DNA of 25,449 nt, from the IMG/VR virus record IMGVR_UViG_3300037465_000306, positions 1 through 25,449 of that record. One strand, given 5' to 3'. Below the pieces are notes generated by a model. It was not told the origin of the DNA. It made no database searches and was given only the letters and a program-made list of their open reading frames with translations. Source of the stretch: a virus. Lineage: Duplodnaviria; Caudoviricetes. The position numbers were made by a program, and so were the translations under genes. Positions 2,446-25,449 of this stretch are shown here, in pieces (the first letter of the stretch is position 1; the number at the start of each line of letters is the position of its first letter).

Positions 2446-4401
2446 ATGCTTACAAAACAATTGCAACAATTCAGAAGACTTGCAAAAGTTACTGACAAAA
2501 GTGTAACCATCAACGAGGACGATATAAATATTTATGAGTATGATGAAACATTCATACCTGAATGGAAACCTACAATTACATTAAAGCCATTAGAGCAAGT
2601 ATCTAAAATTTACTTGGATATCGAAACAACCGGATTAGATCCAGACTCAGACGAGGTTGTTTTGATAGGACTGATGAATGAGAAAGGTAGGATTCACATC
2701 ATAGATTGCAAATCCAATGGTGAATTGAGCGGACTCTTGACATTTTTAGAGATACTAGGAAAGAAAAAACCAGAAATATTGCTAACATTCAATGGCTTCA
2801 AATTTGACTTACCTTTTTTGATTAAAAGGATGCGATTACTAGGTATACCTAGTAATCAAATACCTTTTTATATCAATCACGAAAAGACAAAGACATTTAG
2901 AATCGCACAGCAATTTTCTGTACCAGTAGAATATAATGATATTTGGTTAAATAGAGGCGAAATAGCAATAATAGATCTATTTCATCAGACTCTAGCATGG
3001 GATTATGTCAATCATAAGTTAACTAGATACGGTTTGAAACATATACCCAACCAATTGAATTTGCCGGGATACGAGAATGATAAACCCATAGAATTATCAT
3101 ATCCTCAGATGCAGCAAGCGATCGCTAATTGGGATGTGAGATCGCCTACAAAGGGAGTGACTGGCAAAGAATTGCTAATAGAGTATCTAGAATCAGATTT
3201 AAAAGCCACAAAAGCAATAGGTGATTTTTTATTGCCTGATATCTACTATCAAAAATTAATTTTGCCTGATTGGAATTTACAATCATTAGCTAGTAGCGGA
3301 AATGGCTCAAAATGGAATGATATTCTAAAACAACACTACAACAGAAAGGGATCACCCCCGCCTCAAACATCACCTAAGTTAACATTTGTAGGCGGGCTGA
3401 CAGGTTCCAAACCTGGATTATTTAGAAATATTGCTAAGATCGATGTAGCCAGCCTTTATCCCTCTATTATGCTGCTATATGGGATTTGCTCTGATAAGGA
3501 CCCAGACAGACATTGTCTTTCCGTTTTACGATTTCTTAGAAATGAGAGATTAAGATTGAAAGCTATAGCTGAGGAGAAGAAAGGAACACCCGAAGGAATG
3601 CAGGCCAAACAGACTCAGGGTGCATTAAAGGTACTTATCAATAGCGGTTATGGATTCTTGTCAACTGGATTTATTGAATACAATGATTTTATTGCGGGGG
3701 CCGGAGTGACGGCACATGGTAGGGCGATTTTAAAGCGTATGATGTCGGCATTGGAAGAATGCGGTATGATAAATATTTCCATCGATACTGATGGGATTTA
3801 TTTCGCATCCGATGATCCTACTTTTGCTAAAAATAAAGCCGCTTGGCAATATTGCCAATCTAAAATGCCAAAATCAATAATCCTAGAATATGAATTAGAA
3901 GCACTTGCCATGTATTGCCCACCCAATGAGAATGATTCAGAAAAGGGATTGCGCAAAAATTACGTTTATGCCTATTTTGATAAAAAGTCGAATGAGGTAA
4001 AAATTAAAGCAAAAGGCAAATTCATTAAGCGTGATAAATGTCATTTAGAGCGATCATTTATCCCTGAGTTAATTAAACACTATTTAGAGGGAAAACATGA
4101 AGCATACTACAAGGAAATACTATCTCAACTTTTAATGGGAATTTACCCAGTAGAAAAATTAGCCGTAAATCGCAAAATCAAGGCTAATGAGTCTAGAATT
4201 GTGGAATTGGGATTAGGCAAACCGGGGGATGTAGTAACCATCTACAAAGAGCGTGATAAAGTTTTGTATGGCAAGCGTGGTCAAGTGTTGAAAAAAAAAG
4301 AAATAATGTGGACTGATGACCCTAGTCGTATCGATTGGAGCTATTATGTGAAAGTGGTACAGTCCATGTGGGATCAATTTGAGAAATGCCCTAAATATTA
4401 G
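2446..4401 (+). CDS. polB: Family B DNA polymerase with 3'-5' exonuclease domain
   Basis: ExoI DIETTG, ExoII FNGFKFDLPFL, ExoIII YLESD, motif A DVASLYPS, motif B KVLINSGYG, motif C IDTDG. Confidence 0.95.
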   Translation: MLTKQLQQFRRLAKVTDKSVTINEDDINIYEYDETFIPEWKPTITLKPLEQVSKIYLDIETTGLDPDSDEVVLIGLMNEKGRIHIIDCKSNGELSGLLTFLEILGKKKPEILLTFNGFKFDLPFLIKRMRLLGIPSNQIPFYINHEKTKTFRIAQQFSVPVEYNDIWLNRGEIAIIDLFHQTLAWDYVNHKLTRYGLKHIPNQLNLPGYENDKPIELSYPQMQQAIANWDVRSPTKGVTGKELLIEYLESDLKATKAIGDFLLPDIYYQKLILPDWNLQSLASSGNGSKWNDILKQHYNRKGSPPPQTSPKLTFVGGLTGSKPGLFRNIAKIDVASLYPSIMLLYGICSDKDPDRHCLSVLRFLRNERLRLKAIAEEKKGTPEGMQAKQTQGALKVLINSGYGFLSTGFIEYNDFIAGAGVTAHGRAILKRMMSALEECGMINISIDTDGIYFASDDPTFAKNKAAWQYCQSKMPKSIILEYELEALAMYCPPNENDSEKGLRKNYVYAYFDKKSNEVKIKAKGKFIKRDKCHLERSFIPELIKHYLEGKHEAYYKEILSQLLMGIYPVEKLAVNRKIKANESRIVELGLGKPGDVVTIYKERDKVLYGKRGQVLKKKEIMWTDDPSRIDWSYYVKVVQSMWDQFEKCPKY

Positions 4402-4420
4402 TTAGTAAAGCAGCTTTACC

Positions 4421-4455
4421 AAAACCCCCGCCTCTAAACAGAAGCGGGGGTTTTT
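4421..4455. terminator. Intrinsic terminator, potentially bidirectional
   Basis: AAAACCCCCGCCTCT-aaac-AGAAGCGGGGGTTTTT after the polB stop. Confidence 0.85.
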
Positions 4456-4468
4456 GATAAATACGTAG

Positions 4469-4510
4469 GGCGTGTAAATGGTTGACAATTGGCGTGTAAA
4501 CGGTTAACCT
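4469..4510 (+). promoter_or_regulatory. Promoter of tnpB overlapped by an 18-bp direct repeat
   Basis: TTGACA (4482-4487), 17-nt spacer, TAACCT (4505-4510). GGCGTGTAAATGGTTGAC (4469-4486) and GGCGTGTAAACGGTTAAC (4491-4508). Confidence 0.6.
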
Positions 4511-4541
4511 TATATTATCTGCTCCATTTCTTAACGTAAAC

Positions 4542-5729
4542 ATGAAAGCTAGGTATAAGTACAGATTCTATCCAACAGACCAACAACAACAGAGTTTAGC
4601 TCAGTTGTTTGGGTGTGTTCGGGTTGTCTGGAATGATGCCCTGGCTATTTGTAAGCGCTCTGAAAAGTTGCCCAGTAACAATGACTTGCAAAAGTTGGTG
4701 ATTACACAAGCCAAAAAGACTGATGAGCGTTCATGGTTGTCTGGTGTTTCTTCAGTGCCATTACAGCAGTCTGTCGCTGATTTAGGAGTTGCCTATAAAA
4801 ACTTTTTCGATTCACTTAAAGGTAAGCGCAAGGGCAAAAAGGTCGGTAGTCCTAAATTCAAAAAGAAGACGCAAAGGCAATCAGCACGATTTACAATTAA
4901 TGGATTTTCAATCAAAGGAGAAGAAGTATATCTAGCCAAAATTGGTAATGTTAAGCCTATTTGGTCGAGAGAATTACCATCTGCGCCAAGTAGCGTAACT
5001 GTTATCAAAGATTGTGCTCACCGCTATTTTCTCAGCTTTGTTGTAGAAGTTCAACCCAATACTACCGTTGCCAAAAACCAAAGCATAGGTATTGATTTGG
5101 GAATCAAAACTTTTGCAGTTATGAGCAATGGGGAGAAAGCAATAAGCCCTAATTACTCAAAGAAAGACCGCAAAATTCGCAAACTACAACGTAAGCTAGC
5201 AAGGCAACAGAAAGGTTCTAAACGTCGTGAAGTCACCAGATTAAAGATTGCTAAGCAACATAACAAAATCGCAGATACCCGAAAAGATTTCCTGCACAAG
5301 TTGTCAACCAGAATAATTAACGATAACCAAGTAATTGTTTTGGAAGACTTGAATGTATCAGGAATGTTAAAAAACCGCAGGCTATCTAGGTTGATTAGTT
5401 TGCAGGGATGGCGAGAATTCCGGGTATTGTGTGAAGCTAAATCAGAAAAATTTAACCGGGATTTCAGAGTAATTAGTAGATGGGAACCTACTAGCCAAAC
5501 TTGTTCTTGCTGTGGGTATCGTTGGGGCAAGATTGATTTGTCTGTTCGCTCAATACGTTGCTTAAGTTGCGGTAATAAACACGATAGGGATGAGAATGCG
5601 TCCCTAAATATAGAAATGGTCGGCATGGGGCATCGGCACGACCTTAAACGGACGGGGAGCGACAGTAAGACTACTTCGGTAGCAAGTTGCTGTGAGCCGT
5701 CAAGAATCACCGACGTTCAACGTCGGTGA
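4542..5729 (+). CDS. tnpB: IS200/IS605-family RNA-guided endonuclease TnpB; RuvC triad intact; no tnpA
   Basis: N-terminal KARYKYRFYP...FGCVRVVWN, RuvC-I GIDLG, RuvC-II LEDLNV, Zn ribbon TSQTCSCCG...CLSCG, RuvC-III DRDENASLNI. Confidence 0.96.
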   Translation: MKARYKYRFYPTDQQQQSLAQLFGCVRVVWNDALAICKRSEKLPSNNDLQKLVITQAKKTDERSWLSGVSSVPLQQSVADLGVAYKNFFDSLKGKRKGKKVGSPKFKKKTQRQSARFTINGFSIKGEEVYLAKIGNVKPIWSRELPSAPSSVTVIKDCAHRYFLSFVVEVQPNTTVAKNQSIGIDLGIKTFAVMSNGEKAISPNYSKKDRKIRKLQRKLARQQKGSKRREVTRLKIAKQHNKIADTRKDFLHKLSTRIINDNQVIVLEDLNVSGMLKNRRLSRLISLQGWREFRVLCEAKSEKFNRDFRVISRWEPTSQTCSCCGYRWGKIDLSVRSIRCLSCGNKHDRDENASLNIEMVGMGHRHDLKRTGSDSKTTSVASCCEPSRITDVQRR

Positions 5730-5758
5730 GTATGTCAACAGAAAAACCCCCGCCTCTG
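5600..5758 (+). ncRNA. Predicted TnpB omega/reRNA: scaffold overlapping the tnpB 3' end, IS right end at TCAA (5735-5738), guide from 5739
   Basis: Subterminal hairpin TCACCGACGTT-c-AACGTCGGTGA (5707-5729) then GTATGTCAA, the usual IS605-group right-end layout. The 5' boundary is only an estimate. Confidence 0.65.
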
Positions 5759-5774
5759 TTTGGAAGCGGGGGTT
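5742..5774. terminator. Terminator between convergent tnpB and dcd
   Basis: AAAAACCCCCGCCTCT-gttt-GGAAGCGGGGGTT; the A5 run gives a U-tract on the minus strand. Confidence 0.75.
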
Positions 5775-5829
5775 GTAACGTGGCTAGGTTGTACTGCAAA
5801 GTCGCTACCAAAATATCAAGGGAACGTAA

Positions 5830-6375: not shown

Positions 6376-6402
6376 GATTTACCCCATCTTTCTGATAAAA
6401 AT

Positions 6403-15468: not shown

Positions 15469-15606
15469 CGCCCCGCCTCAATTTCAATGTTGTTTTTGTT
15501 GATAGTAAAGCAGCTTTACCAGAAGAGCCCTCGCCCCGCCTCACCTAGTAAAGCAGCTTTACCAGAAGAGCCACACCCCGCCTCAATCTCAATGTTGTTT
15601 TTGTTG
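15468..15606. repeat. Composite repeat cluster: three CCCCGCCTC and two palindromes within 31-bp and 27-bp direct repeats
   Basis: 15471-15501 vs 15576-15606 (30/31 identical); 15503-15529 = 15546-15572; 15468-15480 = 15531-15543. Confidence 0.9.
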
Positions 15607-20205: not shown

Positions 20206-20224
20206 TAAAGCTGCTTAATTGACC

Positions 20225-21217
20225 ATGAGTACACAAAATCCATCTGGCGATAGCGATAAAATCATCCTAATTAATGATATTGGTATAAAAACTGAGATTA
20301 TACCATCAGCAACAGAAAATCGTAGCCTATCTTTGCCTGATAAAGATGGCGTATTAGCTGTAACTTCAGATTATTTTACACCACAAACCATTGTATACAC
20401 TACACCCGGATCGTATACGTACACCATACCTAATGATGCTAATTATATACGTATGATTGTTATAGGTGGTGGTGGAGGTGGTGGAAGCGGGAGGAGGGGC
20501 GCAGTCTCAACCAGCCGAACTGGTGGGGGTGGTGGTGGAGGTGGTGGAGTGACCGACATCACCTATAGAAATATTGATATCCCTGGTTTTAATCTTAGTA
20601 TTACTGTCGGTGGAGGTGGTATAGGCGGGGCTGCGGTAAGTACTAATGATTCCAATGGAAATGGTGGCACTGCTGGTGGTAGTAGTCAAATCGTAGATAC
20701 TTCCTCTAGTAGAATTCTAGCTTTTGCTAGTGGTGGTGGGGGTGGAGGTGGTGGTACCGGATCAACTGGCGGATCAGCGGGATCCCCAGGTAATATAGCA
20801 ACTTATCCGGGATCTACTGGTGGACCTGGCGGTACTTCTGGCGGGACTGGTGGATCATATTCTAATATGAGTTGCGGCTCTGGTGGAGGCGGCGGGGCCG
20901 TGACTTCTTCCAACAACACAAATAGCGGGGGTGGAGGCGGTAAGGGTGGTTACGCTTATCAGGGAGGTTCCACAGTTGGGGGTGGTGGTGGAGGTACAGG
21001 GGCCGGGGGCGGCACTTTCGCCACCGTATATAATCCACCTATGCCTGGATCTGGTGGTGGTGGTGGTGGATCTAGCATATCTGCTAATAGTGGGAGTGGT
21101 GGAAATGGATCCTCACCTGGAGGAGGTGGTGGGGGTGGAGGTGCTGTCTTGAATGGATTTACAGCTAGTAAGGGTGGTAATGGTGGTACGGGTGCTGTAT
21201 ATATTTACGTTTGGTAA
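20225..21217 (+). CDS. Glycine-rich virion protein 1 (putative adhesin)
   Basis: TPGSYTYTIP...IGGGGGGGSG...ITVGGGG.GG...GGNGGTGAVYIYVW; start ATG 20225 preferred. Confidence 0.8.
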   Translation: MSTQNPSGDSDKIILINDIGIKTEIIPSATENRSLSLPDKDGVLAVTSDYFTPQTIVYTTPGSYTYTIPNDANYIRMIVIGGGGGGGSGRRGAVSTSRTGGGGGGGGGVTDITYRNIDIPGFNLSITVGGGGIGGAAVSTNDSNGNGGTAGGSSQIVDTSSSRILAFASGGGGGGGGTGSTGGSAGSPGNIATYPGSTGGPGGTSGGTGGSYSNMSCGSGGGGGAVTSSNNTNSGGGGGKGGYAYQGGSTVGGGGGGTGAGGGTFATVYNPPMPGSGGGGGGSSISANSGSGGNGSSPGGGGGGGGAVLNGFTASKGGNGGTGAVYIYVW

Positions 21218-21226
21218 TCATCAATT

Positions 21227-22261
21227 ATGGCTTATCAAAATCCTAGAGGGGATAGAAAAGATAAAATAAAAATCCTTGGTAATTCTATCAGTACTGATAT
21301 TAATACTGAAATTTTGCCAACGGCAACAGCTAATAGAACTATTACTACACCCAATAAAAACGGTGATCTCTTACTGAATGACGATATTTACACCCCCGCC
21401 TCTGAAACATTTCTATTGCCAGGTACATACAACTACACGATACCTGATGGCGCAAAATTAATTAGATTTATTTGCATAGGCGGTGGTGGAGGTGGTGGAA
21501 GTGGTAGGAAAGGTGCCACCTCTACAGTTCGTGGAGGGGGAGGCGGGGGCGCAGGAGGGAATATCACAGATCTAATATATAGAGTTGCAGATATTCCAAC
21601 CAAAGATTTAATAGTAACAGTCGGTGAAGGTGGTGCAGGCGGGGCCGCGGTAAGTACTATCGATACCAATGGAAATAATGGCACCATCGGCGGATCAAGC
21701 ACAATTATGGAATCCTCGACTAGTAGAATTTTAGCGATCGCCTCTGGTGGAAATGGTGGTAATTACGGCAACAACTCTAATGGTGGGGCCACAACTATTT
21801 TGAATACCTTAGGGTTGACTTATGCAGGTGGTAGCGGCGCTTCTGGCGGAGGATTTACAAACAATGCTGCTAATGGTGGCGCGACGGCCATGGGTACGGG
21901 TGGAGGTGGAGGTGGAGGTGGAATGTCCGCCGGTAACGTTTCACGTTTGCCGGGAAATGGGGGTAAGGGTGGGGTAAGTTATCAAGGTAGTAGTAGTAGT
22001 ATAACTGGCGGTTTGGCCGGGACCAACGGTACCACTGGTACTAATGGTAGTTCATTCACTATAGTTTATGGGCCGCCTATACCAGGCTCTGGTGGTGGAG
22101 GTGGTGGGAATGGTAACGGCGGTAGCGGCGGTAGCGGCGGGGATGGTACTTCACCTGGGGGTGGTGGTGGTGGAGGCGGGTCATGCTCAAATGATGAAGG
22201 TGCTATCGCCAATAAGGGTGGTGATGGTGCTGGGGGTGCTGTGTATATCTATACTTGGTGA
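21227..22261 (+). CDS. Glycine-rich virion protein 2, paralog of the previous gene
   Basis: Same architecture; ends GGDGAGGAVYIYTW. Confidence 0.8.
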   Translation: MAYQNPRGDRKDKIKILGNSISTDINTEILPTATANRTITTPNKNGDLLLNDDIYTPASETFLLPGTYNYTIPDGAKLIRFICIGGGGGGGSGRKGATSTVRGGGGGGAGGNITDLIYRVADIPTKDLIVTVGEGGAGGAAVSTIDTNGNNGTIGGSSTIMESSTSRILAIASGGNGGNYGNNSNGGATTILNTLGLTYAGGSGASGGGFTNNAANGGATAMGTGGGGGGGGMSAGNVSRLPGNGGKGGVSYQGSSSSITGGLAGTNGTTGTNGSSFTIVYGPPIPGSGGGGGGNGNGGSGGSGGDGTSPGGGGGGGGSCSNDEGAIANKGGDGAGGAVYIYTW

Positions 22262-22269
22262 TCAGAAAA

Positions 22270-22626
22270 ATGGGTTTAATCGATTTTGATCAAGCTTCAG
22301 CTTTAGTTAAGCAGCTTTACCCGAATGCGGCTGATCCTATGCTCTCATACGAGTTGGAGAATACAAAAGGTCAATTTTATAGACCCTATCTAATTTCAGC
22401 TAAATTCATGCTAGCTGAGTATAGGCAGCTAATAAAAGCCGATGAAGTAAGTTTTGCCTATGACATTATAAGGACTGCAAAAAATTTATTATCATTGCAA
22501 AAACTGATAGATAAAAATGATAATTCTATCCCTGAAGGTCAGTCAGTTGATGATATTTTAGGGGTAATAAATCATGTTGAATGTGAGAAATGTGTAAACG
22601 AAACTATAGGGATTAATATCTACTAG
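22270..22626 (+). CDS. Hypothetical protein, possible head-tail adaptor
   Basis: About 118 aa, helical, just upstream of the portal; ATG 22270 preferred over GTG 22255. Confidence 0.5.
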   Translation: MGLIDFDQASALVKQLYPNAADPMLSYELENTKGQFYRPYLISAKFMLAEYRQLIKADEVSFAYDIIRTAKNLLSLQKLIDKNDNSIPEGQSVDDILGVINHVECEKCVNETIGINIY

Positions 22627-25288: not shown

Positions 25289-25329
25289 GTTTAGCTATTT
25301 ATCAATGTTAGTGAATTAGTTGAAATTAT

Positions 25330-25449
25330 CAGAAAAATGGGTTTAAAACCTCGCCCTTCTAGGGCGACTTTACTTTTGTATGCCTTTAGTTTACCATAGT
25401 AGATATAGTTTGGTAAGCACAGTGTTAAAAGCCTACAAGTACAGAATCT
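25330..25449 (+). mobile_element. Left end of a second IS200/IS605-family (IS1341-type, tnpB-only) element
   Basis: TTAT (25326-25329), then CAGAAAAATGGGTTTAAAACC, then hairpin TCGCCCT-tct-AGGGCGA (25351-25367), followed by a tnpB start. Confidence 0.75.
25422..25449 (+). CDS. tnpB: Start of a second TnpB, 3'-truncated and not in the ORF track
   Basis: GTG TTA AAA GCC TAC AAG TAC AGA ATC = MLKAYKYRI, the typical TnpB N-terminus; preceded by a left-end hairpin. Confidence 0.75.

Follow-up and report, generated by a model that had tools for sequence, protein, structure and literature searches.

The locus described here raises the question of what a tnpB gene, lodged between the DNA polymerase and dcd genes of a phage, is aimed at, and whether a guide that folds into a hairpin can be used at all. 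The first-pass annotation of this DNA had proposed that the guide is a junction of the right and left ends of a transposable element (RE|LE), pointing TnpB at the left junctions of IS605-family copies, with the hairpin shortening the guide against self-cleavage. A different answer is favoured here with moderate confidence, namely that an IS605-family tnpB gene, together with its right end and a copied promoter-like block, forms a predicted homing nuclease whose guide RNA would direct cleavage of the empty site when sister phages infect the same cell.

The phage and its tnpB gene

The window, i.e., the whole stretch of DNA analysed, is the entire virus record of 25,449 nt and encodes a helicase, a family B polymerase, Dcd, tail tube, capsid, terminase, and portal proteins. 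The host is likely to be a filamentous cyanobacterium, because the closest TnpB relatives are mostly from Nostocales and the phage polymerase has relatives on cyanobacterial plasmids. A host or prophage with repeat B plus CAGAA was found in none of 401 cyanobacterial genomes, and GenBank phages contained no close relative of the window phage (portal identity of at most 26%). Two short repeats mark the phage DNA: AAGCWGCTT occurs 14 times in the window (25 kb) as opposed to 6 times in 415 kb of host loci, and CCCCGCCTC 25 times as opposed to twice. Both are phage-specific, spread window-wide, and also found in the related loci L007 and L100; they are often joined as terminators at gene ends and are present within coding sequence too. 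The features needed at the outset are as follows:

4542..5729, plus strand: tnpB, 395 aa, with intact RuvC residues D185, E268, and D350 and a zinc finger; no tnpA upstream
5590..5738, plus strand: predicted omegaRNA scaffold, overlapping the 3' end of tnpB and including the right-end hairpin and TCAA; 5' boundary estimated
5739..5754, plus strand: predicted 16-nt guide CAGAAAAACCCCCGCC, corresponding to the pre-insertion phage flank (15/16 against the empty allele behind TTTAC)
5745..5774, minus strand: intrinsic terminator formed by repeat A, serving the convergent dcd operon; the interior (5754-5765) is an exact inversion of that in L007 and L008

The protein carries the HTH, OrfB, and TNB domains and the RuvC D-E-D triad of an IS200/IS605-type TnpB. 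The right end was placed correctly in the first-pass annotation: a GAAT guide at 5704-5707 and a hairpin at 5707-5729 are followed by the TCAA cleavage site at 5735-5738, and the likeness to related elements ceases at 5738. The fold of 5560-5790 has a z of -4.5, and an Rfam search returned no match. Contigs bearing related tnpB copies in runs X1, X5, and X7 depart from the window at the same position, 5738, and part from it at 4541 on the left side. No closer donor element was found, the best DNA identity being 86% among 389 Nostocaceae genomes, and the TAM region of TnpB found at best 84% identity among 401 genomes.

As a separate observation, a tnpB of about 93% identity is present in X1 and was seen in X5 and X7 as well; over window positions 4540-5738, X1 shows a surplus depth of near-identical tnpB (176 vs. 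115), and over 3941-4223 it holds a minor polymerase variant (depth 19.5) that is unlike both the window and L007.

The source of the guide and its predicted target

A scan of IMG/VR with dcd gave 13 loci, two of which (L007 and L008) are close, with 93% protein identity. Both align with the window at about 90% on either flank and lack all of 4420-5738, presenting instead an uninterrupted order of polymerase stop, repeat B ending in TTTAC, CAGAAAAACCCCCGC, hairpin, TTGTAAC, and dcd. One contig each in runs X2 and X4 spans the same tnpB-free allele, these being perhaps the same samples as L007/L008 and hence not independent. The tnpB insertion, situated between conserved polymerase and dcd genes and missing from sister genomes in the manner of a homing endonuclease, lies 3' of a conserved tetranucleotide (TTAC|CAGAAAAA in L007/L008), and its right flank equals the empty site. 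As the tnpB-free sister allele already holds CAGAAAAA, the guide is the pre-insertion flank, as expected for IS605 elements. It fits the empty site behind TTTAC at 12/12 seed positions and 15/16 overall, the single mismatch arising because the hairpin interior is inverted.

The starting point of the RE|LE proposal was a genuine one: positions 5739-5746 and 25330-25337, the latter opening a left end, both read CAGAAAAA. What was built upon this identity was for the most part not borne out. The 8-mer precedes the insertion in L007, L008, X2, and X4, and it continues as a phage terminator, not as TGGG followed by a guide tetranucleotide and a left-end hairpin; its A-run corresponds to a terminator U-tract. 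No RE|LE junction was found in 208 loci searched by regular expression. The annotation had suggested comparing flanks at homologous loci, with unrelated flanks speaking for a chance match; among 85 distinct flanks (110 related loci, 95 rows kept), none contained CAGAAAAA, the best reaching 5/8, a result that speaks against the proposal by the annotation's own standard. The 8-mer itself has 6 copies in the window, 1.9-3.4 being expected, and the left-end starts found in the TnpB family average 5.25 A per 8 nt, under a search pattern that demanded a C-purine-purine start.

The left ends and their relics in the window are listed below:

25326..25449, plus strand: separate IS605-family element, truncated by the contig end, with TTAT motif, left end from 25330, and a tnpB start near 25422
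22259..22279, plus strand: 17-nt left-end stub, TGAT|CAGAAAAATGGGTTTAA, no hairpin; sister allele TTAT
6378..6398, minus strand: stub resembling a left end, upstream of dcd (18/21 positions match), with no counterpart in L007
2410..2430, minus strand: left-end-like stub upstream of the polymerase gene, 18/21 match; TGAT here, TTAT in L007

The 25330 sequence is a true left end, since the start TTAT|CAGAAAAATGGGTTTA runs into a left-end hairpin in 26/26 host matches (22 by regular expression, 4 by eye) from 151 Nostocaceae genomes, with stubs lacking the hairpin in 0/26; the idea that such stubs are common in hosts at large was accordingly rejected. The element behind it belongs to another TAM class and has a different TnpB start, and no relative covering 25330 was found. 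Compared with TTAT followed by the first 17 left-end bases, the three gene-border stubs agree at 18-20 of 21 positions (none such in 60 simulated genomes), and all stop at the foot of the would-be hairpin; in one of the TTAT stub alleles of the sisters, 22 nt are identical to the 25330 junction. We read these stubs as scars of earlier insertions. Their counterparts in sister loci lie at L166:3490 and L007:7613, and the stub at 22263 likely supplies the start codon of the next gene.

Two origins may be considered for the 8-mer already present at the empty site. It could be an older left-end stub, since TTAC|CAGAAAAATGGG left ends exist (8/13 matches real, in 6/301 cyanobacterial genomes) and the phage carries three stubs; we regard this as possible but doubtful. 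The phage's own repeat-B module would be the simpler source, repeat B being followed by CAGA at 5/39 counted ends, among them CAGAAGA...CCCCGCCTC modules common to the sisters. A left-end origin of the guide is thus not supported in the form of an RE|LE junction and survives in a weak, historical form as an older stub; whichever origin applies to the 8-mer, the functional match of the guide is the empty site. An insertion preference for left-end-like flanks was also considered and rejected, as flank and left end of the same element agree at 0-5 of 8 positions (mode 2) among 71 related elements, with no favoured +1 base.

Which sites could be cut depends on the TAM. From 117 loci, 76 distinct elements with a detectable left end were gathered, their motifs comprising 53 TGAC, 13 TTAT, 5 TCAC, 2 TTAC, 1 TAAC, and 2 irregular, the last two being left out so that 74 were used. 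In ISDra2 TnpB, K76 is reported to read the -3 base, and the residue sets aligned here to read the -3 and -1 bases (PMC10097598). S71 of the window protein aligns with K76 and, by our own reading of the alignment, N46/Q50 lie near Y52/S56. S71 occurs in 13/15 elements with T at -3 and 0/59 others, and Q50 in 61/61 elements with C at -1 and 0/13 with T, counts that overstate the support as the elements are related and not independent. The TAM is therefore predicted to be TTAC, the motif of the empty site, rather than the TTAT of 25330, because S71 goes with T at -3 and Q50 with C at -1. Some features make this prediction uncertain: TnpB residues 118-120 (TIN) are closer to those of TAAC/TCAC elements, the nearest TnpB backbones (85-89%) are of the TGAC type, one further TTAC element has A71, and the TAM-residue signature of the window TnpB is unique among its 120 nearest proteins. 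Apart from this prediction, residues 46/50, 71-72, 79-80, and 116-120 covary tightly with the insertion tetranucleotide (TGAC, TTAT, TCAC, TTAC, TAAC) across L001-L005, L020-L099, L108-L132, and L157-L163, and thereby offer a simple, testable natural TAM code for this cyanobacterial TnpB clade.

Given the predicted TAM, on which the comparison relies, the guide finds 15/16 positions in the sister allele and 9/16 at its own left junction, as would befit a homing nuclease. No TTAC site in the window has more than 5 leading guide matches, and the nearest self site, at 15520, matches 13/16 behind TTTAC with mismatches at positions 6, 8, and 12. The proposed truncation by the hairpin for self-protection is hence unneeded. 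As for the left junctions, the guide matches the 25330 left end at 8/16, behind TTAT in place of the predicted TTAC, and no left end found exceeds 8/12 of the first bases. Since double mismatches in positions 1-12 are reported to abolish cleavage by ISDra2 TnpB (PMC10097598) and a 10-nt guide to allow ISDge10 TnpB to bind without cutting (PMC13507860), left ends could at most be bound by the window TnpB. The anti-transposon idea is probably wrong for this protein. Real TTAC-type left ends in cyanobacteria and the two stubs that read TGAT where a sister has TTAT lend the original proposal some colour, yet indels are frequent at the stub-bearing gene borders, TTAT|CAGAAA is still present at 6394 and 25330, and a guide aimed at left junctions with a protective hairpin is, all considered, very improbable.

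A related thought is that TnpB binds without cutting, its 6-8 free guide bases holding the complex on TTAC|CAGAA repeat-B modules or left-end-like sites as a transcription roadblock in sisters or in its own genome. The ISDge10 precedent and the seed of about 6 nt described for TldRs (PMC10705468) agree with such a role, as do several TTTAC|CAGAA sites at gene borders. It is nonetheless improbable, given an intact RuvC, a guide that is not conserved across homologs and so bears no sign of selection, and the persistence in the carrier of such sites (15520, 15563), which speaks against a strong effect.

In wider searches, TTAC plus 12 guide bases had 24 matches in IMG/VR, two of them the sister phages. 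The longest match besides these, 19 nt in L135, was taken as chance, the gene resembling a Firmicutes-type metA by translation. No other tnpB-bearing phage relative emerged from the dcd, polymerase, or TnpB scans of IMG/VR, no further carrier from two metagenome pattern scans, no match from an exact scan for the left hairpin, and no contig with the empty allele from run X1, the sole run with most of the cassette. The distant dcd relatives L009-L019 have no repeat A and at most one repeat-B core, and do not polarise the insertion site.

The left side of tnpB and the hairpin over the guide

Upstream of tnpB, the following features occupy the space in which a left end would be expected:

4405..4419, plus strand: phage palindromic repeat B (GTAAAGCAGCTTTAC), directly after the DNA polymerase stop; same in L007/L008
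4420..4456, plus strand: second copy of the repeat-A terminator hairpin, in the left end's place, with five T on the plus strand
4469..4518, plus strand: copy of a phage intergenic promoter-like block, with 18-bp direct repeats at 4469-4486 and 4491-4508 and TTGACA at 4482-4487

The last bases of repeat B, TTTAC at 4415-4419, constitute both the insertion motif and the predicted TAM. In relatives, the hairpin of the left end is situated some 85-575 nt before tnpB; a left end with guide tetranucleotide and hairpin is present in 76 distinct relatives and absent upstream of the window tnpB, where a CAAAA remnant survives at most. No tnpA lies inside the element, merely 122 nt separate the insertion point from the start codon, and the element's own IS promoter region is gone. 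With the terminator copy in the left end's place, the self-target is broken: the seed of the copy is 3 nt shorter than that of the empty site, and TTTAC plus the copy matches the guide at 7/12. The copy went unflagged in the terminator scan. This left copy (see 4433-4444) resembles what template switching from the right hairpin copy would yield.

The promoter-like block is identical at 47/50 positions to the intergenic region of divergent genes in the sister contig L100, where it is flanked on one side by a divergent 88-aa gene and on the other by the gene that opens the run toward the helicase region; no comparable match was found in the other loci examined, and an exact search of IMG/VR with the 18-bp repeat matched the sister phage L100 only. 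Judged by its position, the block copied at 4469-4518 is likely a phage promoter, and the copy lies 23 nt before the tnpB start codon, although a promoter consensus scan counted no more than shuffled controls did (3 vs. 3.2). A contig of run X1 tracks the window to 4519 and then goes on like L100, and an 88-aa protein of 94% identity occurs on 3 contigs (up to 31,448 nt), as does the window TnpB, which suggests that the carrier phage keeps the original block and that 4469-4518 is a duplicate. IS605 elements, by comparison, are reported to express tnpB usually from a promoter of their own, sometimes under Arc repression (10.64898/2026.09.24.754181).

The 88-aa protein itself (L100:2121-2387) is of a cyanobacterial family, divergent from the block, and a candidate repressor for the 18-bp repeats. 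It has no PHROG family, no named Atlas cluster, and no Foldseek match, and its model reaches a pLDDT of 58 alone and 72 with 6 sequences.

The usability of the guide in a hairpin-bearing RNA is the main point at issue, and to have raised it is the real contribution of the first-pass annotation. The hairpin at 5745-5774 (-19.6 kcal/mol) leaves guide nt 1-6 free and pairs nt 7-15 and 17-19, so that the asserted pairing of the guide in a terminator stem stands for the untrimmed transcript. The accompanying claim, that the guide runs into a repeat-A terminator, is correct as to the hairpin, with a qualification as to the strand: the terminator scan flags it on the minus strand only, the plus-strand tail reads TTGTAAC, and the U-tract faces the dcd strand. 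Read on the dcd strand, the A-run of the guide is thus the U-tract that would stop the convergent dcd transcript.

Opening guide nt 1-12 in the untrimmed RNA would cost 10.2 kcal/mol, a value equally high in 1 of 83 natural flanks, and opening nt 1-16 would cost 17.3 kcal/mol, above all 83. These costs speak for the chief rival reading, a stranded and muted passenger: the insertion would be the same, but its guide would be shut by the hairpin, the terminator and promoter copies would stem from no more than a repair of the polymerase-dcd junction, and the element would be disappearing as did the earlier insertions now left as stubs. The confinement of the cassette to a single lineage, the three left-end stubs (suggesting repeated loss of such elements), and the surplus tnpB depth in X1 (suggesting recent arrival) point the same way. 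Set against this, an RNA whose 3' end falls at or before guide nt 28 has an opening cost of at most 1.2 kcal/mol, the plus strand has no U-tract to set the 3' end at the hairpin, the reading frame and catalytic residues are intact, and chance would hardly be expected to set a promoter-like copy just ahead of tnpB. TnpB is described as having no 3'-end processing of its own and as tolerating 3' padding, with host RNases as possible trimming agents (PMC10278001). We consider a muted passenger possible but unlikely.

Predicted homing and its relation to known systems

The homing nuclease reading that we prefer would entail the following course of events. TnpA would have inserted an element of the TTAC type where repeat B ends, whereupon the old flank became the guide. 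A later rearrangement would have replaced the left end and tnpA along with the IS promoter; it would thereby have given the polymerase gene a terminator again and placed tnpB on the phage schedule, at the price of TnpA excision. With TTAC as the presumed TAM, a usable guide would result either from host RNases trimming the RNA 3' end within the hairpin or from displacement of the hairpin by the target. A sister genome cut at the empty site would then die or be repaired from the tnpB-bearing genome via the polymerase and dcd flanks of about 90% identity, and such repair would spread the cassette. Cleavage of the donor joint by IS605 TnpB, driving recombination, is reported (10.1101/2023.03.14.532601). 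The cassette occurs in one lineage only across the IMG/VR and metagenome scans, so spread by homing is a prediction.

The preferred reading may be taken further, to a phage-owned, RNA-guided weapon against sisters that is locked in by left-end loss, switched on with the replication genes via a repressor-controlled promoter present in duplicate, and held in check by a terminator hairpin until this is opened or trimmed, with the TTAT-to-TGAT changes in the stubs as selection footprints of TnpB complexes recognising left ends. This extended form is speculative and we think it rather unlikely as a whole.

Several known systems invite comparison. The locus shares with the IS605 elements ISDra2 and ISGst2 (10.1101/2023.03.14.532601, PMC10097598) the D-E-D RuvC, the right-end hairpin, TCAA, insertion 3' of a 4-5 nt motif, a guide equal to the right flank, and a target equal to the empty site. 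Unlike them, it has no left end, tnpA, or IS promoter, so could not peel out even in trans, and its tnpB expression would come from the copied phage block. More generally, active TnpBs that have lost their mobility are on record (PMC10691335). The plasmid TnpB gene drive, in which IS-free plasmid copies are displaced without TnpA (PMC11870625), offers an analogy, as the TnpB-bearing replicon is here likewise predicted to displace or convert IS-free copies without TnpA; the window case differs in that phage genomes of about 90% identity and a captured promoter would be involved, both by prediction. Free-standing phage homing endonucleases such as Seg and Mob of T4 (PMC13565253) similarly sit between conserved phage genes, are absent in sisters, and have a cleavable site only in the sister allele, whereas the specificity of the window nuclease would derive from a guide RNA recorded at insertion and its spread is predicted only.

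Among phage-resident members of the TnpB family, TldR of Enterobacter prophages (PMC10705468) is nuclease-dead and has a conserved, host-directed guide, neither of which applies to the window TnpB with its D185, E268, and D350; 0/85 related-element flanks share its guide, and a second phage copy was not found. The type V-U2 locus of cyanophage vB_AphaS-CL131 (PMC6293099) also encodes a TnpB-family protein, but with a CRISPR array that is absent in the window. An intact IS605 element, a TldR, and a CL131-like CRISPR locus were accordingly ruled out, the first lacking its left end and tnpA here, the second being at odds with the intact RuvC, and the third with the missing array.

TnpB homing has been shown at donor joints (10.1101/2023.03.14.532601) and between plasmid copies (PMC11870625). 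The listings and abstracts searched contained no test of homing between phages by a nuclease-active TnpB, nor of promoter capture by a nuclease-active tnpB gene, though similar loci may sit in supplements. The window locus comes with a target allele found in nature, a junction that is naturally self-protected, and a predicted TAM, and RNA-guided marker exclusion between phages is therefore directly testable; it also allows a natural experiment on whether TnpB is blocked when a strong hairpin covers its guide.

Elsewhere in the window, a repeat-B/repeat-A module at 15503-15590 lies in a 43-nt tandem duplication, and two adjoining paralogous glycine-rich proteins of 332 and 344 aa, probably related to tail fibres, are encoded at 20219-22261.
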